A stretch of 64,000 bases of DNA from Flavobacteriales bacterium DA487 (GTDB lineage Bacteria > Bacteroidota > Bacteroidia > Flavobacteriales_D > Sanyastnellaceae): the NCBI GenBank assembly GCA_049334165.1, contig JBEGHD010000004.1. The stretch is one strand, 5' to 3'. Both the position numbers and the translations under genes were made by a program. The notes under the pieces are model-generated. The model searched no databases and was not told the DNA's origin. It saw only the letters and a list, made by a program, of their open reading frames with translations. The first letter of the stretch is position 1; each line of letters starts with the position of its first letter. Shown here in pieces: positions 27,662-40,363 of the stretch.

Positions 27662-28114
27662 CTAAAGGAGTTTTTTCACTTTGACTGCGTTCAATCCTTT
27701 AGGACCTTTTTCAAGTTCAAAAGATACCCTGTCATTTTCGTAGACATCTTCCAGAAGTCCAGTGACGTGAACAAAGTACTTTTGCTCGCCACCCTTTTCC
27801 TTGATAAAACCGTATCCTTTTTCATCATTGAAGAATGCTACAGTTCCTTTTTTTACAGGGTCCTGAGCTTCCAACTCAGATTTTTTAGGTACACCGATCA
27901 CAATGTCATCGGCATCAATTTCCTCTTTTTTCTTGGGGTCTGGTGGAGTGTCTGATAAGTTGCCGTATTCGTCAACGTAGGCGAACTCTCCTGGCCCCTC
28001 GCCTTCTTCAGCTCTGGCTTTGCGCTCTTCTTTGCGCATCAGCTTTTCTTTCTTCTTTCTGGCTTTTTTCTTTTCGCGTTCTTTCTTACTAAAACTTTCT
28101 TGAGACTTACCCAT
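27662..28114 (-). CDS. cold-shock domain protein with Lys/Glu-rich N-terminal extension
   Basis: C-terminal CSD: KGTVAFFNDEKGYGFIKE...FVHVTGL (RNP1-like motif). Confidence 0.75.
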   Translation of the reverse strand: MGKSQESFSKKEREKKKARKKKEKLMRKEERKARAEEGEGPGEFAYVDEYGNLSDTPPDPKKKEEIDADDIVIGVPKKSELEAQDPVKKGTVAFFNDEKGYGFIKEKGGEQKYFVHVTGLLEDVYENDRVSFELEKGPKGLNAVKVKKLL

Positions 28115-28146
28115 TAACTGTTTTTTGATGAATATAAATTACTTGC

Positions 28147-28169
28147 AAACTGTTTAACCGAAACAGTTT
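28147..28169. promoter_or_regulatory. perfect 9-bp inverted repeat in the csp 5' leader
   Basis: AAACTGTTT-aaccg-AAACAGTTT about 35 nt upstream of the csp start codon. Confidence 0.35.
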
Positions 28170-28686
28170 AAGGAAGGGAAAATGCAGAAATCGATCAGAG
28201 AGAATTGACCGCAATTTTCGGCAGAAACCGAACAGTAGGAGTTACTTGCCTGAAGGGATTGTAAGCATTTTTCGATGGAGCAAAGATAGAGATAAATACG
28301 CTCGACTCCTAACTGTCTAAAAGCCTCTCTATTAGGGCTTTTAAAAAGAAAATGTAATTCGGTCATTAATTTGAACTACATTTGCGCCAATTCTTAGTTG
28401 ACGTTCTGTCAAGATAGCTCTCCGGCTAAAATCGGATTTCATCATCTTTACTTTCTGTATCGGCTAAGAGCAACGACCTGGAAAAGTTCGTTTGTGCAGC
28501 ACTGCCCAATTTGGAGCAGCAGAAAATTGTAAAGTAACCTCGAAGATCACTCCGCGCATTGATTTTAGGGTTGTCATAAAACTTTTTCCCTACACTTTTT
28601 AACAGGCCTTTTTTCAGCGCGTGAATAAGGCAAAACAAGAACGCAGCTCGATTTAAAAAACATATCGAAGTTGCCAGCAAATTTAT

Positions 28687-29901
28687 ATGCAACAATCTTT
28701 TAAGAAAAAGCGCAGCAACAAGCCTTTTAATGGTGGAAAGCGTACACAAGGTGGTTTCAACAACCGCAGAAACACCAAGAGTAAAGCAAAACCTTCGAAC
28801 CTCAATCCCGCTCTTTTGCAACGCAAAGCGTCTGACGTTGAAGTTATTGACTACGAGTCTACAAGGACATTTGAAGACATGCCATTGAGCCCAAAACTCA
28901 AGCAGTGCCTGTCTAAGAAAGGATTTGAAAAACCAACTGAAATTCAGGATAAAACCCTGGAAAGCCTTCTGGAAGGACGCGATATCCTCGGAATTGCCCA
29001 AACAGGAACTGGAAAGACAGGAGCTTTTCTTATGCCCATCATCGAGCAACTTCAGCAAAACAGAAAGAAATCATTCGCTCTGGTAGTGGTTCCCACAAGA
29101 GAACTCGCTGTTCAGGTAGACGATGAATTCAAAAGCATGACCCGCGGAATGGGATTCTTCAGCGCCTGCCTCATCGGTGGAACAAACATTAACAAGGACA
29201 TTGGATCTCTCCGCAGATCGGTTCATTTGGTAGTGGCCACTCCTGGTCGCTTACTCGATTTAGAGAAGAGAAGAGCTCTCGATCTCAGACAATTCAATAC
29301 ACTGGTTTTGGATGAGTTCGACCGAATGCTCGACATGGGGTTCATCAACGATGTGAAGTCGATTATCAAATCGATGCAGCAACGAAAGCAGACTATGCTT
29401 TTCTCTGCAACGCTGGACAAAACGCAGCAACAGATGATTGACAACACCTTGCACAACCCTGTGACAGTTAAAGTGAGCACCGGTGAAGCAACTGGCGATC
29501 ACATCGACCAGGAAGTGATAAAACTTCAGGTCGGTGAAGACAAGCTCAAGACGTTGATAGACATGGTTTCGGACAAAACTTTCGAGAAGGTACTTGTATT
29601 TGATGAGACCAAAAGAAGAGTGAGCAAGCTGTGTGATCAATTGAACAAGGCCGGCATTAGCTCCGATCAAATTCACGGAAACAAGAGTCAAAGCCAGCGT
29701 CAACGAGCACTGTCGAAATTCAAAAACGGACAGGTAAAAGTATTGGTAGCTACAGACGTAGCTGCCAGAGGAATTGATGTTTCAGATGTCACTCACGTGA
29801 TCAACTACCAGATCCCGATGACTTTTGACAGTTACATCCACAGAATTGGTCGAACCGGCCGCGCTGGGAAAGCTGGAAAAGCCTACACCTTCGTCAACTA
29901 G
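28687..29901 (+). CDS. DEAD-box ATP-dependent RNA helicase (RhlE-like) with basic N-terminal extension
   Basis: Q-motif, AQTGTGKT, DEFD (DEAD variant), SAT, HRIGRTGRAG motifs. Confidence 0.85.
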   Translation: MQQSFKKKRSNKPFNGGKRTQGGFNNRRNTKSKAKPSNLNPALLQRKASDVEVIDYESTRTFEDMPLSPKLKQCLSKKGFEKPTEIQDKTLESLLEGRDILGIAQTGTGKTGAFLMPIIEQLQQNRKKSFALVVVPTRELAVQVDDEFKSMTRGMGFFSACLIGGTNINKDIGSLRRSVHLVVATPGRLLDLEKRRALDLRQFNTLVLDEFDRMLDMGFINDVKSIIKSMQQRKQTMLFSATLDKTQQQMIDNTLHNPVTVKVSTGEATGDHIDQEVIKLQVGEDKLKTLIDMVSDKTFEKVLVFDETKRRVSKLCDQLNKAGISSDQIHGNKSQSQRQRALSKFKNGQVKVLVATDVAARGIDVSDVTHVINYQIPMTFDSYIHRIGRTGRAGKAGKAYTFVN

Positions 29902-29920
29902 TTTGACTGGAAAATAATCA

Positions 29921-29959
29921 AAAGCCCTGCTCCGATCGATTTCGGAACAGGGCTTTTTT
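29921..29959. terminator. bidirectional terminator between helicase and rtcB
   Basis: AAAGCCCTG...CAGGGCTTTTTT. Confidence 0.65.
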
Positions 29960-29973
29960 AATTTCTAGGAAAC

Positions 29974-31380
29974 TTAGTCCACTTCGTGAAACCTCTTGTC
30001 GCCACACATCCTCACAATCCTCGGTTGAAATTTCCCGATGACATCGACCAGATCTTTCTGTGATTCCATCACATCGTTGATGTTCTTGTAAGCCATTGGT
30101 GCCTCATCCAGGCCAGATCCAATCACCTCTACATTTGCTTCTTTAAGATGGTTGGTTACCTCCTTTTTATTCAGCGTTTTCTTTGCCTGAGTTCTGGACA
30201 TGTTTCTTCCGGCTCCGTGTGCCGCTGAATTGATCGAGGCTTCATCACCTCGTCCTCTAACGATAAAGCCAGGAGCAGTCATCGATCCGGGGATTATTCC
30301 CAAAACTCCTTTACCTGCAGGGGTTGCACCTTTTCGGTGAACGATGATCTCGTTTCCTTCCCTGTCCTTTTCTTTCCAGGCGAAGTTGTGGTGGTTTTCT
30401 ACCATCGCCACAGGATCAGTTCGTAAACCAACTGCCATCCGATCGTGAATCTGGTGGTGACATGCCGAAGCATAATCACCGGCAAGGTTCATAGCACGCC
30501 AGTACTCCTGCCCTTCTTCCGAATCCAGATCTAGCCACGCCAGGTGCCTTGCTTCTTTCGGAAGCTTGCACTTTTCCATGGCAATTTTGGTGTAGTGACG
30601 GGCGATGTTTGCGCCCAGCCCTCTGGATCCTGAGTGAGAAAGCAGAGCGAGATAACGTCCGACCGGCAGATTGAATTCATTGTTTTCATCAAGGATTTCA
30701 GTTACACCGAATTCCACAAAGTGATTTCCTCCTCCGGAAGAACCGATCTGACTTGCTGCACGATCTTTCAAATCACGAATTATTTTAATGTCCTTAAAAA
30801 GTTCGTGTTCCAGGATTTCGTGATCCTTTGGCCTCTTGAAAAATTCACGACCAAACTTTGTGTTGTCGATCAGCATCTTTCTCAAGCCTTCTCTTTCTGT
30901 GTCGATCATCGATTCCGGTAGTTCATAGATTGACATGCACATTCTACAACCGATGTCCACTCCCACTCCATAAGGGATTACAGAATTTTCAGTAGCCAAA
31001 ACACCACCAATCGGCAATCCATAACCCTGGTGAGCATCTGGCATCAAGGCTCCGGCTTTAGCAATCGGCAATCTCATAGCCACATCGATCTGACTCAATG
31101 CGCCTGCTTCAATCCCTTCAGCTCCATAGACCTTGTACAGATCAGGAGTTTCTCTAAGAGGAAGTACTTGATCCTCCGGTGGGAGAAGTGCTTCCGCCAT
31201 TTTTCCGACCTTAGAATCAGACACGTATCGCTCCGGAGAAATCAATACCGGTTTCAGTATCATTTTCAAGTCTGATTCGGATTTCTCGGGAAAATGCTCT
31301 TCGATTGCTTTTAGCGCCTCACCAAAGGCTTTTCCCTCTGGCATTCCTATTTTTATAAGTAGTTTTGAATTAGATTCCAT
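29974..31380 (-). CDS. rtcB: RNA-splicing ligase RtcB
   Basis: DIGCRMC, GGGNHFVEFG, HHNFAWKE, HRKGAT and AHGAGRNMSR motifs, all RtcB hallmarks. ATG at 31380 preferred because the longer ORF-track extension would read through a perfect intergenic hairpin. Confidence 0.85.
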   Translation of the reverse strand: MESNSKLLIKIGMPEGKAFGEALKAIEEHFPEKSESDLKMILKPVLISPERYVSDSKVGKMAEALLPPEDQVLPLRETPDLYKVYGAEGIEAGALSQIDVAMRLPIAKAGALMPDAHQGYGLPIGGVLATENSVIPYGVGVDIGCRMCMSIYELPESMIDTEREGLRKMLIDNTKFGREFFKRPKDHEILEHELFKDIKIIRDLKDRAASQIGSSGGGNHFVEFGVTEILDENNEFNLPVGRYLALLSHSGSRGLGANIARHYTKIAMEKCKLPKEARHLAWLDLDSEEGQEYWRAMNLAGDYASACHHQIHDRMAVGLRTDPVAMVENHHNFAWKEKDREGNEIIVHRKGATPAGKGVLGIIPGSMTAPGFIVRGRGDEASINSAAHGAGRNMSRTQAKKTLNKKEVTNHLKEANVEVIGSGLDEAPMAYKNINDVMESQKDLVDVIGKFQPRIVRMCGDKRFHEVD

Positions 31381-31415
31381 CTTTTCAAAATTCTGCTTCA
31401 AGTTAATAATCATAA

Positions 31416-31439
31416 GGGACCCACCGTATTGTGGGTCCC
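31416..31439. other. perfect 9-bp stem hairpin between SPFH gene and rtcB
   Basis: GGGACCCAC-cgtatt-GTGGGTCCC. Confidence 0.6.
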
Positions 31440-31448
31440 ATTCATCCA

Positions 31449-32552
31449 TCATTTATCAGGGGCGAAGATGCCCTTCAATTGACTGAGAATTTGACCGTTG
31501 CCGGACAAAGTGATCTCGCCAACTTTTTCAGCGATTTTCTCGACATACTCCATCTCTTTCAATTTCAATAGCATGTCATTTTCTTCCATCAATTTTGCTG
31601 TGTTCAACAGGCTTCTTGTGGAAGCAGTTTCCTCTCTACGCGTAATCACGTTTGCCTGAGCTTTCTTTTGTGCGATCAGCACCTGGTTCATAATTTCTTT
31701 CATTTCACCAGGCAAAATCACATCACGCACACCGCAACTGCAGACCTCGACACCGAGCTTCTCGGAAGACTCTTTCAGCGTTTCCATCACGAATTCTGAA
31801 ATGCCCTCTTTATTCTCGAGCAGGTTATCCAAAGTCAACTTACCGATGTATTCACGCAGGGCAAACTGCATCAGGATGTAGAGCTGCTTTTCGTATTCCT
31901 TATTGTCGATCACTGCCTTGCTCACATCTACCACTCGATATTGCGTGAAGAAGTTAATTCGCAAAGCTGCCTTGTCTTTAGTCAGTATTTCCTGACCAGA
32001 CACTTCCAGTTGTTGCTGACGCAGGTCAACAGTCTCAACCGAAACGGCTTGATTTGTCTTCCAGAAGTAGTATGAACCTGGCTCCAGGATCTCGCGGATC
32101 TTGTTATCGATGATAAGCACACCTTGTTCGTAGCTTTTCACGCCAAAAGACTGGATGTACAAGTGCAGTTCACTTTGACGTGCGAGCGTTTTTACGTCCA
32201 CCTCTTCAGTCACCTCTGGCTTGGAGAGGTCAATCGTCACGTAGGTGAACTTTTTGTAATCTTTCCAGAATGCATATTCACCCGCGGTGAGAACTCTGTT
32301 GAAATTGCCGCTTTCGTATTGAATAACAATTTCGTTATCCGCAACTTCTATCACGTCAAGATTCTCTCTCAACTCTTCGTACTCCAGAAGAATTGACAAA
32401 TCGATGCTTGGCACAAATCGCTTTGACAATTCGCAAACTACCAGATCATCGAAGAGACCGAGACGATGGTAGCCTCTTTTGATCACTTTTTTCAATTCAT
32501 CTTTACGAAATACCAAACCGATCTGACCGGCTTTAATTCTCACCTTTTTCAT
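31449..32552 (-). CDS. SPFH/band-7 (slipin-like) domain protein
   Basis: C-terminal half looks like an SPFH coiled-coil region. No obvious N-terminal TM. Co-oriented with and immediately upstream of rtcB. Confidence 0.6.
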   Translation of the reverse strand: MKKVRIKAGQIGLVFRKDELKKVIKRGYHRLGLFDDLVVCELSKRFVPSIDLSILLEYEELRENLDVIEVADNEIVIQYESGNFNRVLTAGEYAFWKDYKKFTYVTIDLSKPEVTEEVDVKTLARQSELHLYIQSFGVKSYEQGVLIIDNKIREILEPGSYYFWKTNQAVSVETVDLRQQQLEVSGQEILTKDKAALRINFFTQYRVVDVSKAVIDNKEYEKQLYILMQFALREYIGKLTLDNLLENKEGISEFVMETLKESSEKLGVEVCSCGVRDVILPGEMKEIMNQVLIAQKKAQANVITRREETASTRSLLNTAKLMEENDMLLKLKEMEYVEKIAEKVGEITLSGNGQILSQLKGIFAPDK

Positions 32553-32910
32553 AGCGTGTTTATTTATGGTTTATAACTTCATTTTCATTTAATAGAAAGC
32601 AGAGACATCGGATCACCCGGAAAACGCGGAGGCTTGTGTGCTCGTCATCAGAAACCATTAGTTTTTGTCAAGGGGTTTTTACAGTCCGAAACTCATTCTA
32701 ATTTGAACTTCTTCTCCGTAAGAACCGGCTCTTCAAAAAGTAATGGGATCTTCAAAAGAACATCCTCAAACCTGCTGAGCTATCTCCAGGTTGCTGATTT
32801 CAGTCGAGACTTTAATCAACCGACCCGATGTCTGCTGCTTTCAGTGGTGTCATTTTTAGAAGTTGACGTCTTCTTTGAGTTGTGTTAATAGATTTACAGT
32901 CTATTAAAAT

Positions 32911-32998
32911 CCACCTTTTGGATTGGTGTTGCTCTACCCACTGAGCTATTCCTGTCAAAGGAAGAGGGATTCGAACCCCCGACTCACAGTTTGGACAA
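32911..32998 (-). pseudogene. two adjacent tRNA-derived half-molecules in permuted order (3' half then 5' half), not a canonical tRNA
   Basis: Read on the minus strand, 32998-32956 is TTGTCCAAA-CTGTG-AGTC-GGGGG-TTCGAAT-CCCTC-TTCCTTT-G, which has an anticodon-loop remnant, a perfect T-arm and an acceptor 3' strand. Then 32955-32911 is ACAGGAA-TA-GCTC-AGTGGGTA-GAGC-AA-CACCA-ATCCAAA-AGGTG-G, which has an acceptor 5' strand, a canonical D-arm and an anticodon arm with CCA in the loop. A third D-arm-like piece, GGAGATAGCTCAGCAGG, lies at about 32770-32790. Confidence 0.5.
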
Positions 32999-33267
32999 TT
33001 TTGAAGCATACCGTTACCGGCACTGCGGAGCTATACAGAAACTCACGCCAGGTCTCATGTCCCACTTCCCTTTTGGGGAAGACCTTTAGTGCTGAAAGCA
33101 CAATGTTTTATCTGATTAAAAGAACTTTCTTTGTGGTCTTGAAACTTCCCCTTTGCTCCTATTCTTTACATCCCTTTGTTTCAATCACGAAGCAAATCTC
33201 AACAGGTAGTGCGCAATCTTTTTGCGTAGTAAAAATTAATTTCATTTTTTCATGAAAATTTTCTGCT

Positions 33268-34992
33268 ATGCCTGTCAACCGCAATGCCTTAATCAGATAC
33301 AAAACCATTGATAACTGCCTGAGAAACAGGTTCAGGAAGTGGACTTTGGAAGATTTAATTGATGCGTGTTCTGATGCGCTTTATGAATATGAAGGAATTG
33401 ATAAGGGCGTGAGCCGAAGAACTGTGCAGATGGATATCCAGATGATGCGCAGCGAAAAACTGGGATACAATACTCCGATCATAGTCATTGACAAAAAGTT
33501 CTACACCTATAAAGACGAGGACTACTCCATCACCAATATTCCACTTACCAATCAGGATCTAGGAAAGCTCACAGAAGTTGTAGACATCCTAAAGCAGTTT
33601 AAAGGGTTTACTCACTTTCGGGAACTAAGTGGAATGGTTCAAAAGCTTGAAGACAAGGTCCACGTTTCAAGGACAAACGAGCGACCAGTGATCGACCTGG
33701 AGAAAAATGAAGGACTGGTAGGTCTTGAGCACATAGATCCAATTTATAACGCAATCATCAAAAAGAAGACGCTTCGGATTTCTTACCAATCTTTTCGCGC
33801 AAGAACTCCGCGAACTTTCAAGTTTCACCCGGCACTTTTGAAAGAGTATCGCAATCGGTGGTTCGTACTCGGAAAAGAAAAGGAAAGTGCCCCCTATACA
33901 CTTCTCGCACTAGATAGAATTCAGGAATTGAGCGAGCTTCAGGAAGAAGTAATGGATTTCCACATCAGTAATATTTCTGACTTCTTCAAAGATGTGGTTG
34001 GGGTAACTGTAAATGAAGGCCAGGAAGCTCAAGAAGTAAAATTACTAATTAGTCATGCAAATGCTCCGTATGTATTAACAAAGCCTATTCACTCCAGTCA
34101 GCAGTTGATCGAAAGAAATGACCAGGGCGTCATTATTTCCATTCATGTGAAAACGAACTTCGAGTTGGTGAGAGAGATATTAGGTTTCGGAGACTACATT
34201 AAAGTAATTTCACCTCTCAGGTTAAAGCGTTTGATCAGGGATAAACTTGTAAACGCTTTGGACCTATATGACACAGAACTGAACTATAAACAGCTTAAGA
34301 GTCTGGACAAGAAGCTAAATGCAAGAGGCTATCAAGTAATAAATCATATCTACACAAGAAAGGAAGTGGCACAAATGGCCAAAATATTAAGGGGCTATGA
34401 AGAGAGTATGGATATGAATAAACAATCGACCTATGCTATAAGGTCCCTCATGAAGAAAATACCTGACCTCTATAAAGTTTGTGTTAACGAAAACCTGAAG
34501 AGAGTTATAAAAAAACTCGACTCAAAGCTTGAGTTAACAAAAGCCATCTATTTCAACAAAGCTCCTCAATCAAATTGGTATGTTACATGGCATCAGGATG
34601 CCACAATCAATGTGAAAGAAAAGAACCACAAAGATGGATTCTCAGGTTGGACCAAAAAAGACACACATTACGGAGTGCGCCCTCCTTTCGAAATTCTCGA
34701 CAAAACTATTAGCGTTAGAATACATCTGGATCAAACCACTGAGAAAAATGGTGCACTAAAAGTACTCCCGGGCTCTCACAAAAAGATTCTGACGAACTCT
34801 GAAGTGACTTTGATAACGGAAAACAGTGAGGCCCAAATTTGCGAAGTTCAACCAGGTGGGGTTCAGTTTATGAAGCCTCTCCTTCTCCACTCTTCCTCGA
34901 AATCTTGGTCACACAAAAACCGCAGAGTGATTCACCTTGAATTCAACCCTCTCGAATTGCCTGAAGGAATGGAATGGGCTGAGAGAATTTAA
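33268..34992 (+). CDS. fusion protein: HTH-WYL-WCX transcriptional regulator fused to a C-terminal phytanoyl-CoA-dioxygenase (PhyH) family Fe(II)/2OG oxygenase domain
   Basis: The N-terminal 330 aa carries a DeoR/HTH_11-like HTH, a WYL-like core (YRNRWFVLG) and a C-terminal extension. The C-terminal 240 aa carries PhyH hallmarks: FNKAPQSNWYVTWHQDATI (HxD) and GALKVLPGSHK. Confidence 0.6.
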   Translation: MPVNRNALIRYKTIDNCLRNRFRKWTLEDLIDACSDALYEYEGIDKGVSRRTVQMDIQMMRSEKLGYNTPIIVIDKKFYTYKDEDYSITNIPLTNQDLGKLTEVVDILKQFKGFTHFRELSGMVQKLEDKVHVSRTNERPVIDLEKNEGLVGLEHIDPIYNAIIKKKTLRISYQSFRARTPRTFKFHPALLKEYRNRWFVLGKEKESAPYTLLALDRIQELSELQEEVMDFHISNISDFFKDVVGVTVNEGQEAQEVKLLISHANAPYVLTKPIHSSQQLIERNDQGVIISIHVKTNFELVREILGFGDYIKVISPLRLKRLIRDKLVNALDLYDTELNYKQLKSLDKKLNARGYQVINHIYTRKEVAQMAKILRGYEESMDMNKQSTYAIRSLMKKIPDLYKVCVNENLKRVIKKLDSKLELTKAIYFNKAPQSNWYVTWHQDATINVKEKNHKDGFSGWTKKDTHYGVRPPFEILDKTISVRIHLDQTTEKNGALKVLPGSHKKILTNSEVTLITENSEAQICEVQPGGVQFMKPLLLHSSSKSWSHKNRRVIHLEFNPLELPEGMEWAERI

Positions 34993-35247
34993 TACAGTAT
35001 TGAAAAGTACGGACCTGACACATTAACAGTCAAACACATCGAGACTGACTCATTTACACTTTTGCTCATTCAGGTTATTTAAATCGCTAAGAGTGCTGAC
35101 TGCCCTGGGATTCAGTTGAGTGGATTTAGCTGAAATTTAAAATTTTACCTTTGCAAAAAATTGATTTGTCAGGTTTTGCCGCATTTTTGGCCCACGGTAC
35201 AATCATTGATCCCTGGTGAATCAGCAAATAACAAAAAGCAATTTTTT

Positions 35248-35676
35248 ATGAGTCAAGTAAAAGAAAACGACACTGTAAAGGTGCATTACACCGGAAAGCT
35301 TTCAAACGGGGAGGTTTTTGACAGCTCTGTAGATCGTGAACCACTAGAGTTCACTCTCGGTCAGGGACAAATCATCCCAGGGTTCGAAAAAGAACTGATC
35401 GACATGAAAGTGAATGAAAAGAAAACTTTTGAGATCAGCTCTGATGATGCTTACGGAGATGTAAGAAAAGAACTGATTCAGGAAGTGCCTAAAGACAATC
35501 TTCCGCCAGACATTAAGCCTGAAGTAGGAATGGGTCTTGTTTCGAAAACTCCTGAAGGACAGGAAATGCGCCTTACAGTACAAGAGGTAAAAGACGATGC
35601 TATCGTTGTGGATGCCAATCACCCATTGGCTGGAAAAGACCTCGTTTTCGATATCGAAGTTTTGGAAATTAAGTAA
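35248..35676 (+). CDS. FKBP-type peptidyl-prolyl cis-trans isomerase (SlyD-like)
   Basis: VKVHYTGKLSNGEVFDSS...PLEFTLGQGQIIPGFE FKBP core with an insert-in-flap region. Confidence 0.8.
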   Translation: MSQVKENDTVKVHYTGKLSNGEVFDSSVDREPLEFTLGQGQIIPGFEKELIDMKVNEKKTFEISSDDAYGDVRKELIQEVPKDNLPPDIKPEVGMGLVSKTPEGQEMRLTVQEVKDDAIVVDANHPLAGKDLVFDIEVLEIK

Positions 35677-35695
35677 GCAGACAACTGCATTAACA

Positions 35696-35732
35696 TAAAA
35701 AAGCCTGATGGAAATTCCATCAGGCTTTTTTT
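35696..35732. terminator. bidirectional terminator between FKBP gene and mazG
   Basis: AGCCTGATGGAA-at-TTCCATCAGGCT flanked by A6 and T7. Confidence 0.7.
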
Positions 35733-35753
35733 GTAGGTCATTATCATAGGAGC

Positions 35754-36515
35754 TTAAATTGACTTAGCTGCTTCCCAGTATTTGTCCATTTCTTCGAGGG
35801 ACATCTCCCCCATTTTTTTGCCGTCTTTGGCAGATTGTTCCTCGAGATACTGAAATCTGGAAATGAATTTTTTATTGGTTCGCTCCAGCGCATCGTCTGG
35901 ATTGATGCCTTTGAACCTGGCAAAGTTGATCAAGCTGAATAAAACATCGCCAAACTCCTCCTCCATTTTCTCCGACCCTTTGTCTGCCTCTTCTTTAAAC
36001 TCATTGAGCTCTTCCACCACTTTCTCCCAAACCTGGCTGTCTTTTTCCCAATCGAAGCCTACTCCCCTGGCCTTGTCCTGAATGCGGCTTGCTTTAACAA
36101 GAGACGGAAGCGAGTTAGGAACTCCTTCCAGAACAGATTTCTTTCCCTCTTTAAGCTTGAGCTTTTCCCAATTGGCTTTCACCGTTTCTTCATCATCGGC
36201 TTTCACATCCCCATAAATATGAGGGTGACGAGAAATCAGCTTGTCGCAAATGGCGTTGAGTGAGTCGGCAATATTGAAATCATTTGTTTCAGAGGCGATT
36301 TTCGAGTAAAAAACCATGTGAAGCAAGATATCACCAATTTCCTTCTTGATCTCTTCCATATCCTTTTCAAGGATGGCATCGGTCAGTTCGTAAACTTCCT
36401 CGATGGTGAGATGCCGCAGGCTGTCCATGGTTTGCTTTCGGTCCCAGGGGCATTTCTCCCGCAGGTCGTCCATGATGTTTAGCAGTCGCTCAAAAGCTTT
36501 CAGTTTCTCGTCCAT
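35754..36515 (-). CDS. mazG: nucleoside triphosphate pyrophosphohydrolase MazG
   Basis: LREKCPWDRKQT...EEVYE and a second EEFGD EExxE motif. Tandem MazG domains. Confidence 0.85.
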   Translation of the reverse strand: MDEKLKAFERLLNIMDDLREKCPWDRKQTMDSLRHLTIEEVYELTDAILEKDMEEIKKEIGDILLHMVFYSKIASETNDFNIADSLNAICDKLISRHPHIYGDVKADDEETVKANWEKLKLKEGKKSVLEGVPNSLPSLVKASRIQDKARGVGFDWEKDSQVWEKVVEELNEFKEEADKGSEKMEEEFGDVLFSLINFARFKGINPDDALERTNKKFISRFQYLEEQSAKDGKKMGEMSLEEMDKYWEAAKSI

Positions 36516-36594
36516 GATCTCAAATTTTTGTCAAAGATAAAGTTTGCACAAGAGACTCTGCCAACTAAACGGATTAGACTAATATCTTTGAGCC

Positions 36595-37701
36595 ATGATT
36601 AGCTGGATGTCCAAACTCTCTTTTCTACTCTTGGGACTGTTACTGGGAATGTCGCTTTTTGGGCAGACAGATAGCAATCAGAAAGTGACCTCGAAACTTT
36701 CATTGAGTGCCGCCCCTCAAGGTGGTTTTGTGATTGCTCACCGAGATCAAATGCGGCACCTTATTCAGGGACACACATCCGGGATCACACTTTCAATCGA
36801 GAAAGAACTCAACGGGTCAAAGTCATGGCACCAGCCTTATCGGTACCCGACTCTCGGTTTTGAATTGTTTGCCGCAAATCTTGGCAACCCCACCCAGATG
36901 GGAAATGCCTATAGCGGCATGAGCTACATCTTGCTGCCACTTAATAAATCTGAAAAATTTAGAATCTACATTAAGCCAGGTATTGGAATCGGTTACGTGA
37001 CAAAAATCTACGACCCTGAAACCAACTCGAAGAACTTCGCCATCGGATCGAAGATAAACGGTGCTGTGATGCTTGAGTCCGGATGTGAAATCGTGCTATC
37101 CAACCGACTCAAGATATTTCCGGGCATTAGGTTGACACATTTTTCGAATGCGGCTTATCAAAAGCCCAACCTAGGCTACAATGTCCCTTCAGTTTTTGTG
37201 GGCGTGAAATGGACCGCTCGCGAAGGAAACAGAATTGAAACCGACTCTGACCCGACAGAGCCTTCCCCTTACCTCCTATCGGTTTATGGAGGCTTTGGAG
37301 TGAAGGAAAACTTCCCGCCAAAAAGTGGAAAGCGTATGACCTATACTCTGAGTAGCATGATCGAAAAGAGAATCTCTTTAAAAAGCTCGTTGGCCGTGGG
37401 GCTCGATGCATTTTACAACGGAGGTATCGAAGATCCCGATGCAGAGTTGAATCAGCCAACACCGTCAAGCAAGAAAATACTCGTTGGAGCTTTTGGAGGT
37501 TATGCTTTTCACCTCCACAGATTTAGGATTCTTTTGCAAGCCGGGCTCTACATTCATGACGAATACAAAAGAAACGGCATTCTCTACAATCGGTTTGGCT
37601 TGCGATACAAGATCACAGAAAGACTCGAAGCTGGATTGCATTTAAAAACTCATATAACAGTTGCCGATCATTTTGAGCTGGGGCTCGGTTACAGATTTTA
37701 A
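36595..37701 (+). CDS. outer-membrane beta-barrel protein, possibly acyloxyacyl-hydrolase/PagL-like
   Basis: Signal peptide, alternating beta-strand pattern, THFSNAAY His-x-Ser-Asn resembling the PagL catalytic motif, C-terminal F. Confidence 0.4.
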   Translation: MISWMSKLSFLLLGLLLGMSLFGQTDSNQKVTSKLSLSAAPQGGFVIAHRDQMRHLIQGHTSGITLSIEKELNGSKSWHQPYRYPTLGFELFAANLGNPTQMGNAYSGMSYILLPLNKSEKFRIYIKPGIGIGYVTKIYDPETNSKNFAIGSKINGAVMLESGCEIVLSNRLKIFPGIRLTHFSNAAYQKPNLGYNVPSVFVGVKWTAREGNRIETDSDPTEPSPYLLSVYGGFGVKENFPPKSGKRMTYTLSSMIEKRISLKSSLAVGLDAFYNGGIEDPDAELNQPTPSSKKILVGAFGGYAFHLHRFRILLQAGLYIHDEYKRNGILYNRFGLRYKITERLEAGLHLKTHITVADHFELGLGYRF

Positions 37702-37704
37702 CAA

Positions 37705-38442
37705 ATGAAGCAAAGTGTTTTTTTCATAGCGATGATTCTGCTAACTGCTAGCTGCAATAAGCCCGATGCACCAGACTGCTTTACACGTGCAGGTGACGTT
37801 GCCCAAGAAACGCGAACCCTGGAAAATTTCACCAGAATCGACCTCCACGATCTCATTGAGCTTACCATTGTTGAAGATACCAGTGCGACTTTTGCCATTG
37901 TAACAGCCAATGAAAACCTTCTCGATAAAATTGTGACGGACGTAGAAGCAAACGTTCTCACTATTGATAATGAAAATACCTGCCGGTTTGTGAGGAGCTT
38001 TAAAAACAAGGTGTCCATAGAGCTACACACTTCAGATCTCAGTGCTCTCATCAACTACGGCCAGGGAAAAATTCAATCGACCAACCAACTTAAAACGGAT
38101 GTCTTCTTTTACGAGCAGAACCACGGGGTTGGCGATGTGGACCTCTCGCTTGAGGCGGATTCGGTGAGTGTGATTTGTCACACCGGAATTGGAAACATAA
38201 AGTTGACAGGTACAACGCAAAAAGTGGGTTTGTTCAATGGTGGATATGGTGTGATAGACGCCAGGTACCTCCAGTCTGAGCAGGCTTTTGTAAACAACTC
38301 CTCGGTCAATGACATTTATGTAAACTTTTCGGAATACCTCTTTGCCTCAATCAGTTTAGATGGAAACATCTACTATTCAGGCCCATCTGCTAATGTGGAG
38401 CCAATCATTCAGGGAAGCGGTGAACTTATCCCTCTCGATTAG
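37705..38442 (+). CDS. DUF2807/GIN-domain lipoprotein (putative adhesin-like beta-helix)
   Basis: Signal peptide plus ASC lipobox and a repetitive beta-helix-like sequence. Confidence 0.55.
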   Translation: MKQSVFFIAMILLTASCNKPDAPDCFTRAGDVAQETRTLENFTRIDLHDLIELTIVEDTSATFAIVTANENLLDKIVTDVEANVLTIDNENTCRFVRSFKNKVSIELHTSDLSALINYGQGKIQSTNQLKTDVFFYEQNHGVGDVDLSLEADSVSVICHTGIGNIKLTGTTQKVGLFNGGYGVIDARYLQSEQAFVNNSSVNDIYVNFSEYLFASISLDGNIYYSGPSANVEPIIQGSGELIPLD

Positions 38443-38490
38443 ATTTTAACCGAAAGAAGGTATTAAATTTGCAATCAGAAAGGACAGATT

Positions 38491-38697
38491 ATGAAGTTAG
38501 TATTGCTCACCATAGGATTATTACTTTTAGCTTTTGCTGGAATTGCAATCAAAATTCTTGTGAAGAAGGACGGTAAGTTTGCCGGCACTTGCGCCAGCAA
38601 CAACCCGATGCTTCAAGAAGAAGGAGCCTCTTGCTCAGTGTGTGGAGCGCGTCCCGAAGAAAAGTGTCAGGGTGATAAGGATACAGCTGCGGCCTAG
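38491..38697 (+). CDS. small Cys-rich membrane protein, NqrM-like ((Na+)-NQR maturation factor)
   Basis: 68 aa with one TM, then CASNNP...CSVC...C. Immediately adjacent to apbE as in nqr loci. Confidence 0.45.
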   Translation: MKLVLLTIGLLLLAFAGIAIKILVKKDGKFAGTCASNNPMLQEEGASCSVCGARPEEKCQGDKDTAAA

Positions 38698-38700
38698 TTC

Positions 38701-39804
38701 CTACTCTATTTTTTGGATCACTTTTTCCATTCCCTTGCTGGCGAAAGTCTCCCAGTTGCCGTCCTGGTCGTAGATCAGAAATACCTCCAGGTCTAACCCT
38801 GGATTCGCTCTCAAGAAGTCTTTCGTCTTTTCAACTCCCATAACCATAAACGCTGTTGCATAGGCATCTGCAGTCATGCATGAGGGTGTCATCACTGTTG
38901 CGCTTAGCAATGAGTGTTGAACAGGCCAACCGGTTTTAGGATCGATAGTGTGAGAGTACTTTATCCCATCTTTTTCATAAAACTTCCGATAGCTTCCAGA
39001 AGTGGCGATTGAAGTATTGTGCAATTCTACAATGGCTTCGAGTTCTCTTTTCTCAGCATTTTCAATAGGTTTATCGATACCGATGCGCCAAAGAGAGCTA
39101 TCTGGTTTAATGCCTCTACAGGTAACCTCACCGCCAATCTCAACCATGAAATTTTCGATGCCGTCCATAAAGAGATAATCGGCAATCACATCTACCGAAT
39201 ATCCCTGAGCGATGGCGTTGAAGTCGATCTTTGTTGTAGGAACCCCTTTTCTAATCCAGGTAACTTTGTAGAGATGCTCCTTCTCCACTTCTATCATTTC
39301 GATGTGGCTCGGAGTAAACCCGGTAAACTCCATAATTGAGTCCACCTTCTCCTGGGTCATTTCCTGTCTGTTTTCTAGTCCAAACCCATAGGCTTGCACC
39401 AGAGGATAAACTGAAGGGTCGAAAGCACCATCAGTTTTTCTCCAAATCTCGCGGGCCACTTCGAACACCACGCTCATAAACTTCGTGGAGTCGTAAAAAG
39501 CGAAAACAGTGTCTGTTCTTGTGAAGTCGTTGATTTGATTGATCAGCGAGCCTTCGCGGTAGGTCGACATGCCTTTGTCGAACTCCAATAGAATAGAGTC
39601 AATTTCGGACTTGTAATCTTTATCAGTGCCCCAGTAGGAAACTGAGTATGTGGTTCCTTGAGCCTCCCCGTTGAGCGTAGTGATCTCGCTTTCTACTTCG
39701 CTTTGATTTCCCGATGACTTTCCTCCATCGCCACAGCTAGATACTAGTATTGCGAATACAGCAAGTGCAGAATAAACAAATGAAAACTTTATTCTCCGAT
39801 TCAT
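38701..39804 (-). CDS. apbE: FAD:protein FMN transferase ApbE (lipoprotein)
   Basis: Lipobox SSCG. ApbE motifs (IAQGYSVD, ATSGSYRKF). ATG at 39804 preferred. Confidence 0.8.
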   Translation of the reverse strand: MNRRIKFSFVYSALAVFAILVSSCGDGGKSSGNQSEVESEITTLNGEAQGTTYSVSYWGTDKDYKSEIDSILLEFDKGMSTYREGSLINQINDFTRTDTVFAFYDSTKFMSVVFEVAREIWRKTDGAFDPSVYPLVQAYGFGLENRQEMTQEKVDSIMEFTGFTPSHIEMIEVEKEHLYKVTWIRKGVPTTKIDFNAIAQGYSVDVIADYLFMDGIENFMVEIGGEVTCRGIKPDSSLWRIGIDKPIENAEKRELEAIVELHNTSIATSGSYRKFYEKDGIKYSHTIDPKTGWPVQHSLLSATVMTPSCMTADAYATAFMVMGVEKTKDFLRANPGLDLEVFLIYDQDGNWETFASKGMEKVIQKIE

Positions 39805-39925
39805 ACCATTCGAGTTTATCGATCGATGCAAATGTCGCATAATTGTTGCCGGACATTCAAATCGTAGATAAACATTTTAAAAAATTACTAACCTCAAAAA
39901 TACTGGAGATACCTTTAGTTTTATT

Positions 39926-40363
39926 TCAAATGGCCATTGCGAACAAGTAACCGAAAATATTCAGTGTTAACCCTACGATCGTTACGATTCCCATATATTG
40001 AAACATTGCCTTCAAGTTAGAGAAAGACTCATCCATTTCATGTTGATCGATTCGTCTAATTGCTATCAATGCTTTACTGGAAAACCTGAAAAGAAAGAAT
40101 ACAGGAAAGAAATATACCGCAGCCAGAACCAGGTAAATAATAGTGAATACAAGACCACCTAATTGGTTGATTCCAAAACCACGTCCTATCGCAGAAAAGC
40201 TATTTCCAACCCAAAATGCTAAGAAAACCATCAGAGCAACACCTATAAATCCGACAATCGACAGAAACTTTGCCCATTTGGCTGCTGATTGCAAGTAATC
40301 GAGTGTGTAGCTTGTGAGACCAATTTCTGTGTTGAACTTAGAGTCGAGAGTAGAATCTTCCAT
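39926..40363 (-). CDS. membrane protein (hypothetical, 4 TM)
   Basis: 145-aa hydrophobic ORF. Confidence 0.4.
   Translation of the reverse strand: MEDSTLDSKFNTEIGLTSYTLDYLQSAAKWAKFLSIVGFIGVALMVFLAFWVGNSFSAIGRGFGINQLGGLVFTIIYLVLAAVYFFPVFFLFRFSSKALIAIRRIDQHEMDESFSNLKAMFQYMGIVTIVGLTLNIFGYLFAMAI

Follow-up and report, generated by a model that had tools for sequence, protein, structure and literature searches.

What does a bacterium control with a transcription factor that ends in an oxygenase, and what is the oxygenase for? The question is raised by a gene in a 64,000-nucleotide (nt) stretch of DNA from Flavobacteriales bacterium DA487 (contig JBEGHD010000004.1 of assembly GCA_049334165.1), which was analysed at its full length and is called here the window. 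The product of this gene, referred to below as the regulator, combines a winged helix-turn-helix (wHTH) domain, a three-helix bundle (3HB), a WYL domain and a WYL C-terminal extension (WCX) with a PhyH-type Fe(II)/2-oxoglutarate (2OG) oxygenase, and its gene is divergent from an operon that encodes the RNA ligase RtcB. WYL regulators and PhyH oxygenases are each well known. As argued below, the protein is likely to be a dedicated transcription factor of the DriD/PafBC type for the adjacent RNA-repair locus, to which the oxygenase has been added as an optional module.

One open reading frame for regulator and oxygenase

In the open reading frame (ORF) of the regulator, the WYL, WCX and PhyH families all score above their Pfam gathering scores. 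An NCBI protein from Halocola ammonii (Flavobacteriales) is 100% identical to it, and the query is covered to 98-100%, with 57-67% identity, by the 120 best database clusters; WYL, WCX and PhyH occur together in all of these but one. A genome scan limited to one genome per species rendered 388 relatives, and 80 species loci were kept for analysis; conservation figures given below come from an alignment of 79 species. Residues 1 to ~573 are matched as a single segment in each of the 80 kept loci, 11 more full-length (long) copies are found in metagenomes, and the fusion is spread over several Bacteroidota orders (Cytophagales, Flavobacteriales, Chitinophagales). An assembly or sequencing artefact that merged two genes, in favour of which nothing was found, is refuted by these full-length homologues (80/80 loci, the 120 best clusters and the 11 metagenome copies) and has a negligible chance of being the explanation.

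A preliminary description of this locus, drawn up from the sequence alone, had read the gene as one uninterrupted ORF with the architecture HTH-WYL-WCX plus PhyH oxygenase, and this has stood up in all its parts. No frameshift or stop splitting two genes is present in the relatives (80/80 loci), the two motifs it had singled out, NWYVTWHQD (aa 436-444) and GALKVLPGSH (aa 495-504), are both there, the catalytic motifs are intact, and the C-terminus is matched by the PhyH profile over positions 4-213 of 213, that is, by an oxygenase family.

RNA-repair genes on the opposite strand

The flanking ORFs of the 80 loci were clustered and the clusters scanned with Pfam. An RtcB gene is located upstream of the regulator on the opposite strand in 59 of the 80 loci, and a gene of the SPFH family in 36-37 of them. 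Other families encoded on the rtcB strand are the RlaP nucleotidyltransferase, present in 24 loci and usually in two copies, and Ro/TROVE, present in 15; the same operons also contain a Thg1-like 3'-5' polymerase and a P-loop kinase, some loci include Pnkp and Hen1, and a small 2OG-Fe(II) oxygenase gene (2OG-FeII_Oxy_3) lies inside some of the repair operons. Which gene opens the divergent operon differs between loci (RtcB, RlaP, Ro or SPFH), whereas the regulator gene does not change, and no conservation across loci was found in the genes downstream of the regulator. A constant divergent regulator combined with variable RNA-repair operons is the signature of a dedicated regulator of RNA-repair cassettes. 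The preliminary description had placed the regulator divergent from an rtcB operon and had thought a role in RNA repair conceivable; the arrangement is as described, and the neighbourhood comparison, with RtcB, Ro, RlaP, SPFH, Pnkp/Hen1 and the Thg1-like protein, bears out the link.

In two Pontibacter loci (L025 and L027) a set of SWIM, DUF5691 and MoxR-type AAA_5 genes replaces the RNA-repair operon upstream of the regulator, and no good copy of the box described in the next section is found within 250 nt of the regulator; in L018 the same set lies downstream.

A conserved box between the divergent genes

A motif common to the 250 nt upstream of the regulator genes defines a 23-bp putative operator box, with the family consensus ACTGCGCA-GTCTTTT-TGCGYAGT, that is, 8-bp inverted arms around a 7-bp T-rich spacer. 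The 64-kb window contains one box and no other match of at least 12 bits. In 1.26 Mb of related loci there are 122 boxes at ≥14 bits and 118 at ≥22 bits, the number expected by chance at ≥22 bits being about 0.6. All but 2 of these boxes have one and the same orientation, and many loci have two or three copies. The distance from the right edge of the box to the regulator ATG has a mode of 36 nt, and that from its left edge to start codons on the other strand a mode of 38-39 nt, the genes starting there being RtcB (36 boxes), Ro (15), RlaP (11) and Hen1 (1). In other genomes, extra copies of the box precede internal rtcB, Ro and RlaP genes. Taken together, 36-40 nt separate the box from the start codons of the regulator, rtcB, Ro and RlaP; it co-occurs with the regulator gene and is present at all candidate promoters. 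Since the regulator gene itself adjoins the box, autoregulation is likely.

The loci compared so far had been chosen by their match to the regulator. In an independent test, metagenome contigs were scanned for the box sequence alone (CTGCGCAGTCTTTTTGCGYAGT), which rendered 71 loci. The regulator and/or RNA-repair genes stand beside the box in 62 of these, with the regulator in 49, RtcB in 26, SPFH in 17, Ro in 14, RlaP in 7 and Pnkp/Hen1 in 2.

The flanks of the box are conserved as well. Over the 118 boxes, CAAAG at positions -15 to -11 has an information content of 0.9-2.0 bits per position, and on the operon strand it reads as a conserved TTTG 12-15 nt beyond the box. In Bacteroidota the sigma-A -7 element has been described as TAnnTTTG at -12 to -5, and the median flavobacterial 5' untranslated region is ~24 nt long (PMC9723704). 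The conserved TTTG flank matches this element and would function as such, in which case the box spans about -20 to -42 of the predicted start sites and occupies the position of the -33 element; no TTTG is found at the -33 position of the box promoters. The transcript of the window would then run leftwards through a tRNA-like region into SPFH and rtcB. DriD binds ATACGAC-N7-GTCGTAT where the -35 element is lacking, the distance to the -10 being constant, and aids assembly of RNA polymerase (RNAP) (PMC13004042). Box and predicted promoter share this geometry: in both cases the two arms of a pseudo-palindrome are 7 bp apart and take the place of a missing -35/-33, with a constant distance to the -10/-7.

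Two other promoter readings of the region were discarded. By eye, a sigma-54 promoter would have CG in the box where the invariant GG of the -24 element is due, and a sigma-70 promoter scan of the intergenic region was uninformative because it applies the wrong promoter grammar for Bacteroidota.

Some loci depart from the usual spacing. A DUF559 (endonuclease-like) gene of ~130 aa lies between box and regulator in L005, L007, L012, L013, L063 and L066, and also in L122; the insertion (about -560 to -4 from the regulator ATG) moves the box ~470-650 nt upstream. In L109, two boxes of the same orientation (1581-1602 and 1988-2009, 407 nt apart) lie between Ro and a regulator without PhyH, which suggests separate promoters for the intervening non-coding RNA (ncRNA) and the regulator.

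Fold and ligand pocket of the regulator core

The first ~335-350 residues were compared with the PDB by Foldseek, using an AlphaFold2 (AF2) model. The top match is full-length DriD with single-stranded DNA (ssDNA) and DNA (8tp8, E 2.7e-12), followed by the DriD-RNAP activation complexes 9pfq and 9pfv and then by PafBC-RNAP (9fnd), and sequence-profile searches of the PDB agree with these assignments. No HTH match at E<0.1 was obtained in the Pfam scan of the regulator; its N-terminal wHTH and 3HB are supported by the AF2 helices and by the Foldseek alignment with full-length DriD (~346 columns). The WYL domain scores 43.2 bits against a cut-off of 21.8 for PF13280 and is also matched by PADLOC WYL models (E 1.4e-24); the WCX scores 46.7 bits against 23.9 for PF25583, with PDB profile matches to DriD and PafBC. 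The AF2 model was built from a 36-sequence alignment and has a mean predicted local distance difference test (pLDDT) of 79 and a predicted template modelling score (pTM) of 0.60, so that, with its stretches of low confidence, it is uninformative on domain packing.

With 83% identity, the wHTH is conserved more strongly than any other part of the protein, and aa 71-150 have the top share of invariant columns among the segments (39%). That wHTH and 3HB are the most constrained segments fits the near-invariant operator box. The role of the DriD 3HB has been described, and it contacts RNAP (PMC13004042). In the WYL domain, Y173, S175, K192, N196, R197, W198, D216 and R217 are invariant in 79/79 species. 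The residues of DriD that contact ssDNA are Y168, S172, R176, R178, Y192, K202, R204, W206, R207, Y240 and R288 (PMC9186387). In the pocket alignment, N191-Y192-L193 of DriD correspond to R197-W198-F199 of the regulator, and D209-R210 to D216-R217; judging from this alignment, the WYL pocket of the regulator is related to that of DriD but different from it. An RNA-derived ligand is a reasonable inference, because the regulon is one of RNA repair and because RtcR, the regulator of RtcB operons in Escherichia coli and Salmonella, offers the precedent of activation by tRNA fragments.

The oxygenase domain and its clade

The predicted metal ligands H442, D444 (in the WHQD motif) and H541 and the predicted 2OG-binding R552 are invariant in 79/79 species. 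An exhaustive search with aa 335-574 alone rendered 2438 representative clusters with E≤1e-3, of which 211 reach E≤1e-30; most are stand-alone proteins of 225-250 aa with 32-45% identity. The same active-site constellation is found in ~145/150 stand-alone representatives, and K431, N436, W437, K464, R484, H486 and D488 are invariant in fused and stand-alone members alike. The shared triad, arginine and further invariant residues indicate that the fused domain is a typical representative of an enzyme family that has yet to be characterised, and is presumably active; from its sequence we consider catalytic activity quite likely.

The Foldseek matches of the C-terminal domain (E ~1e-9) comprise FtmOx1, SnoK/SnoN, proline hydroxylase, EvdO2, HygX, AndA, MysH and human PHYHD1, the FtmOx1 alignment spanning the distal His and the RR motif; in the model, small-molecule oxygenases are the closest structural relatives. 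The domain shares with the PhyH superfamily (PHYH/PHYHD1, EctD, FtmOx1, SnoK/SnoN, EvdO2/HygX/AviO1 and proline hydroxylases) the double-stranded beta-helix, HxD...H and the 2OG arginine, and differs in belonging to an uncharacterised clade with invariant residues of its own and in being fused to a transcription factor. No equivalog of NCBIfam applies (best 22.7 bits, cut-off 336), the matches far below threshold being ectoine hydroxylase and PhnY-type hydroxylases.

A place among the AlkB/TET-type nucleic-acid dioxygenases was considered and rejected: no AlkB-like (2OG-FeII_Oxy_2) or TET/JBP domain is present, PhyH is the only oxygenase family in the Pfam scan, and no AlkB or TET structure is among the top 50 Foldseek matches. 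The contexts of three stand-alone PhyH members (DUF3857/3858, RecO, SufBD etc.) are unrelated to RNA repair.

Regulators without PhyH

Among the complete regulator ORFs of the box-selected metagenome loci, 11 are long (571-580 aa, with PhyH) and 22 are short (334-370 aa). The short regulators end just past the WCX, show 48-73% identity with aa 1-335 of the regulator in the window, and have the same box and RNA-repair neighbours as the long forms; 79 of the 93 positions invariant in long forms are kept at ≥90% in short ones. No PhyH-like sequence is found elsewhere in the loci of short regulators (tblastn, E≤10), nor did any box-selected locus contain a split form, in which a short regulator would be accompanied by an adjacent PhyH gene. 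When aa 1-332 are placed on a neighbour-joining tree, most of the short forms fall into separate clades, and at least 3 are nested among long forms. From this tree, it appears that PhyH was gained in part of the family and secondarily lost at least 3 times within the long-form clade. Orthologues without PhyH that have the same box and neighbours mean that the oxygenase is an optional module, which the core regulator does not need. The preliminary description had presented the oxygenase as the effector of the regulator, a view that these orthologues contradict; it had also asked whether homologues are always fused or are split genes, and they are neither.

Two kinds of rearranged copy were observed. 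In L081 (735-1736) a decayed copy consists of a 22-bit box followed by a remnant of aa 1-77 (69% identity) in another reading frame and, directly after it, an intact PhyH ORF of 234 aa, which looks like an internal deletion of WYL and WCX. A third architecture joins wHTH-3HB directly to PhyH, without WYL and WCX, in P0164 (Echinicola rosea), P0167 and P0238. In exactly these three the 2OG arginine and/or metal ligands are lost, making PhyH a pseudo-enzyme. The Echinicola locus (L083) contains neither box nor RNA-repair genes, and a transporter of the Na+/sulfate-dicarboxylate type is located divergently upstream of the HTH-PhyH gene. A degenerate PhyH kept on an HTH head indicates that the PhyH fold can persist as a non-catalytic partner, and hints at physical or regulatory coupling.

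Possible roles of the oxygenase

Within the favoured reading, PhyH would be an optional appendage, most plausibly a second input or a signal-linked enzymatic step. It could be coupled to sensing in two ways. The oxygenase could process the RNA ligand held by the WYL domain, either to shut the signal off or by an Ada-like logic in which repair activates the regulator; alternatively, it could feed O2, Fe(II), 2OG or oxidative status into induction. Such coupling is a tentative proposal, somewhat short of an even chance. All fused proteins have kept a strictly invariant active site, a 2OG-FeII_Oxy_3 gene occurs in some repair operons, and the wHTH-3HB-PhyH proteins, by keeping a degenerate PhyH, suggest that it can be a regulatory or dimerisation module of the head. 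Set against these are the orthologues that manage without PhyH in the same contexts, the structural neighbours acting on small molecules with no similarity to AlkB/TET, and the presence of the same active-site constellation in stand-alone enzymes from unrelated contexts. A hint of nucleic-acid binding was sought in the isoelectric point, which is no different between fused and stand-alone domains (8.8 vs 8.4). The linker between WCX and PhyH is the least conserved segment of the protein (34% identity), which suggests a loose tether.

The same linker, the optional nature of PhyH with its repeated loss within the long-form clade, and the abundance of stand-alone relatives would also be expected if PhyH were a loose passenger, that is, a housekeeping small-molecule oxygenase that is co-expressed and leaves regulation unaffected. 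We find this doubtful, since fusion and intact active site have been kept across several Bacteroidota orders in all 80 loci, no split form was found, and the degenerate PhyH retained on an HTH head argues for some coupling.

A more specific version of coupling may be called an 'Ada of RNA repair'. The WYL and WCX domains would capture damaged RNA or tRNA fragments and PhyH would oxidise the RNA or a nucleotide, gating activation, so that this reaction, or O2/Fe/2OG status, would gate RtcB, Ro, Pnkp-Hen1 and the tRNA-like RNAs. This reading is improbable on present evidence.

Activation or repression

As far as sequence comparison can indicate, the protein probably, with good confidence, binds the box and regulates the RNA-repair locus in the manner of DriD and PafBC, as an analogue of RtcR. 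In the mechanism that we propose, a dimer would bind the dyad of the box (ACTGCGCA-N7-TGCGYAGT) through its N-terminal wHTH domains, between the divergent promoters and in place of the -33 element. A damage-derived nucleic-acid ligand, most likely single-stranded RNA or tRNA fragments, would enter the WYL/WCX pocket, free the wHTH domains and turn on transcription, in the window of the tRNA-like ncRNA-SPFH-rtcB operon and of the regulator gene itself. By analogy with DriD and PafBC, activation is favoured over repression with modest confidence, because of the promoter geometry and the closer fold similarity to these two proteins.

It is conceivable that the same regulator and box work in the opposite sense, as in CapW and BrxR, with the dimer blocking both divergent promoters until a ligand releases it. 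This is unlikely in our judgement: DriD and PafBC, which head the structural matches, are activators, and no CapW or BrxR is among the first 50 Foldseek matches; the 7-bp spacer, the missing -33/-35 and the fixed -7/-10 distance mirror DriD promoters; and the 3HB, which contacts RNAP in DriD, is the most invariant segment. A protein bound at about -20 to -42 on both sides could nevertheless block RNAP. The -33 element is weakly conserved in Bacteroidota, so that its absence from the box promoters is weak evidence for activation. Repressors of wHTH-WYL-WCX architecture that sense ssDNA are documented (PMC11662680).

Several observations weigh against an RNA-sensing DriD-like regulator of RNA repair. 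About 9 of the ~72 untruncated loci have no recognisable RNA-repair gene within 8 kb, and the binding of the box by the regulator is deduced from their co-occurrence and relative position. The confidence of the AF2 model is low at aa 62-93 (the wing) and 112-149. The ssDNA-contacting R204, W206 and R207 of DriD align with Y210, L213 and A214, so that the contacts are partly kept; with this partial conservation the ligand need not be RNA. The structural neighbours of PhyH, which are small-molecule enzymes, and its stand-alone contexts give no clue to a substrate, and the WYL repressors CapW and BrxR have the same architecture as the regulator. With these points included, the reading as a dedicated DriD/PafBC-type transcription factor of the adjacent RNA-repair locus is the one that we retain as likely.

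A structured tRNA-like RNA and tRNA genes in the operons

The stretch that separates the box promoter from the SPFH gene in the window shows nucleotide conservation across at least 35 loci of different genera (nhmmer, E down to 9e-24), and RNAalifold of a 16-sequence alignment (A2) gave a consensus structure of 52 pairs, with compensatory changes in 30. The preliminary description had regarded it as tRNA debris; it is instead a conserved structured ncRNA of the operon. Besides the permuted tRNA-like module, it contains three D-arm-like repeats and a stem-loop resembling an anticodon arm, with GUA (Tyr) in its loop CUGUAAA. Neither ARAGORN nor the Rfam tRNA model found a tRNA in the window. As the only Rfam match is a sub-threshold one to YrlA, no curated family seems to cover the ncRNA, which is probably the tRNA-like RNA associated with SPFH of which the abstract of Burroughs & Aravind 2016 speaks.

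Assignment to YrlA or the Y RNAs was rejected: the match to RF02553 has 36.1 bits (E 5e-05) and does not reach the gathering score of 69, the two RNAs being alike in the permuted tRNA-like module only. No Ro ORF is present at 28000-40000 of the window (ORF list, Pfam); 15 of the related loci do encode Ro.

In loci of the SPFH type, a gene for tRNA-Tyr(GUA) or tRNA-Phe comes first behind the box promoter on the operon strand, and the window has no such gene; this position suggests that the box-proximal tRNA is co-induced with the repair operon. In addition, some loci have arrays of 4-12 tRNA genes (Asn, Lys, Ile, Met, Pro, Tyr, Gln, His, Arg, Ser, Cys), either at a distance of 1-5 kb downstream of the regulator or between Ro and RtcB. 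No box is found in front of the downstream arrays, and six loci have two genes between regulator and array, one for a HigA-like HTH protein and one of 90 aa.

Table 1. Features of the window and of related loci (L numbers), with their coordinates and the basis of each call.
Feature	Sequence	Position	Strand	Basis and remarks
Regulator gene, wHTH-3HB-WYL-WCX-PhyH	window	33268..34992	+	ATG start, 574 aa; ORF list, Pfam, full-length homologues
Winged-HTH DNA-binding domain, aa 1-70	window	33268..33477	+	AF2 helices 5-19, 27-42, 50-61; Foldseek to DriD
Three-helix bundle, aa ~95-164	window	33550..33759	+	AF2 helices 95-109, 115-136, 153-164; equivalent of DriD 3HB
WYL domain, putative ligand sensor, aa 154-221	window	33727..33930	+	Pfam PF13280, E 3.8e-11
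WCX, dimerisation, aa 254-330	window	34027..34257	+	Pfam PF25583, E 4.2e-12
PhyH-type Fe(II)/2OG oxygenase, aa 353-574	window	34324..34989	+	Pfam PF05721, aa 353-554, E 3e-14
Predicted metal ligand H442	window	34591-34593	+	
Predicted metal ligand D444	window	34597-34599	+	
Predicted metal ligand H541	window	34888-34890	+	
Predicted 2OG-binding R552	window	34921-34923	+	
Putative operator box, 23 bp, AGTGCGCA-ATCTTTT-TGCGTAGT	window	33208..33230	+	35.8 bits; 36 nt from regulator ATG
-7-like promoter element GAGATTTG of the ncRNA-SPFH-rtcB transcript	window	33193..33200	-	function proposed from flank conservation
Conserved structured ncRNA, ~570 nt, box promoter to SPFH gene	window	32568..33138	-	nhmmer, RNAalifold
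Permuted tRNA-like module (T-arm, hairpin, D-arm) in ncRNA	window	32927..32988	-	Rfam YrlA RF02553, sub-threshold
SPFH/Band-7 gene, first coding gene of divergent operon	window	31449..32552	-	Pfam Band_7, E 7e-31
RtcB RNA ligase gene	window	29974..31452	-	Pfam RtcB, E 1.2e-84; 4-nt overlap with SPFH stop
HTH-PhyH gene of Echinicola rosea, WP_137403546.1 (P0164)	L083	8001-9258		
tRNA-Tyr(GUA)	L002; L004; L014; L015	7576-7659; 7633-7716; 7773-7857; 3090-3175		
tRNA-Tyr(GUA)	L018; L032; L035; L050	7770-7855; 7764-7851; 7760-7843; 7603-7685		
tRNA-Phe	L010; L055	7770-7845; 7773-7848		
tRNA arrays	L011; L020; L044	10851-13115; 8202-10259; 11373-13493	+	
tRNA arrays	L021, L026, L028, L030, L036, L039, L042		+	
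tRNA arrays	L067; L059; L077	1615-1851; 5789-6057; 4214-5380	operon strand	

Other features near the regulator in the window

The genes to the right of the regulator, for an FKBP-type isomerase and MazG, are unrelated to it. They are convergent, and between them, at 35660-35734, a weak Rfam match to Thr_leader (E 0.47) corresponds to the strong hairpin of a bidirectional intrinsic terminator (AAAAAAGCCTGATGG...CCATCAGGCTTTTTTT). Just beyond rtcB are a gene with a cold-shock domain (27662-28114, minus strand), called by reading the sequence, and a DEAD-box RNA helicase gene (28687-29901, plus strand; Pfam). This pair is found near the regulator elsewhere in L060 only, and probably reflects a chance clustering of genes of RNA metabolism.

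Comparison with known systems

DriD of Caulobacter crescentus and PafBC of Actinobacteria, which are activators responding to DNA damage, have the domain order of aa 1-335 of the regulator and are its best fold matches. They differ from it in controlling a DNA-repair regulon, whereas the genes found here are RtcB, Ro, RlaP, Pnkp/Hen1 and a tRNA-like ncRNA; they lack PhyH, which adds ~240 aa to the C-terminus of the regulator; and their hosts have a promoter grammar unlike that of Bacteroidota. CapW and BrxR, WYL repressors of phage-defence islands, share the wHTH-WYL-WCX architecture, and PADLOC WYL models match the regulator; however, they have BREX or CBASS neighbours, are structurally less similar to it than DriD and PafBC, and have no oxygenase domain.

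RtcR, the activator of rtcBA and rsr-yrlBA-rtcBA in E. coli and Salmonella, is likewise dedicated, adjacent to and divergent from an RtcB operon, and its operon, like the loci described here, can include Ro and Y-RNA or tRNA-like ncRNAs. Its ligand domain senses nucleic acids, and tRNA fragments activate the protein (PMC7790460). RtcR is, however, composed of CARF, sigma-54 AAA+ and C-terminal HTH domains, none of which was detected in the regulator (Pfam, NCBIfam), and the box does not have the GG/GC spacing of sigma-54 promoters. The likeness is best described as a functional analogy, with no homology.

The joining of a DNA-binding regulator and a pathway-related enzyme domain in one polypeptide has parallels in Ada, PutA, BirA and NadR. 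In contrast to these, orthologues without the enzyme domain exist in the present family, and the coupling of catalysis to regulation is hypothetical.

Conclusions

To our knowledge, the control of RtcB-type RNA-repair operons is understood only for the proteobacterial RtcR, and all the WYL regulators characterised so far that we know of respond to single-stranded DNA and have DNA-damage or phage-defence genes under their control. Full-text literature searches rendered no description of a WYL-PhyH fusion, nor, in the literature covered, of a WYL regulator that serves RNA repair and has both a defined operator and an intact, optional oxygenase; a key computational survey of 2016 lies outside that coverage. 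A later paper cites this survey (Burroughs & Aravind 2016) for 2',3'-cyclic RNA ends and WYL domains, and the association of WYL domains with RNA repair may, to judge from that citation, already have been noted there computationally.

The family described here gives a defined regulator, a candidate operator and a regulon for RNA repair across Bacteroidota, and the 23-bp box can be used for regulon prediction, electrophoretic mobility shift assays and reporter assays. Two questions become testable in this way, namely which signal reports RNA damage in bacteria and whether RNA can be read by a WYL domain. An induction of spare or decoy tRNAs alongside the ligase is suggested by the ncRNA and by the tRNA-Tyr and tRNA-Phe genes close to the box. 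Moreover, the natural orthologues without PhyH and the catalytically dead HTH-PhyH variants constitute a ready comparative experiment on the fusion of an enzyme to a transcription factor. If the 'Ada of RNA repair' were true, improbable as it is, the PhyH domain would be the first oxygenase of its clade to act on RNA, and the protein the first WYL regulator to be gated by an oxygenase.

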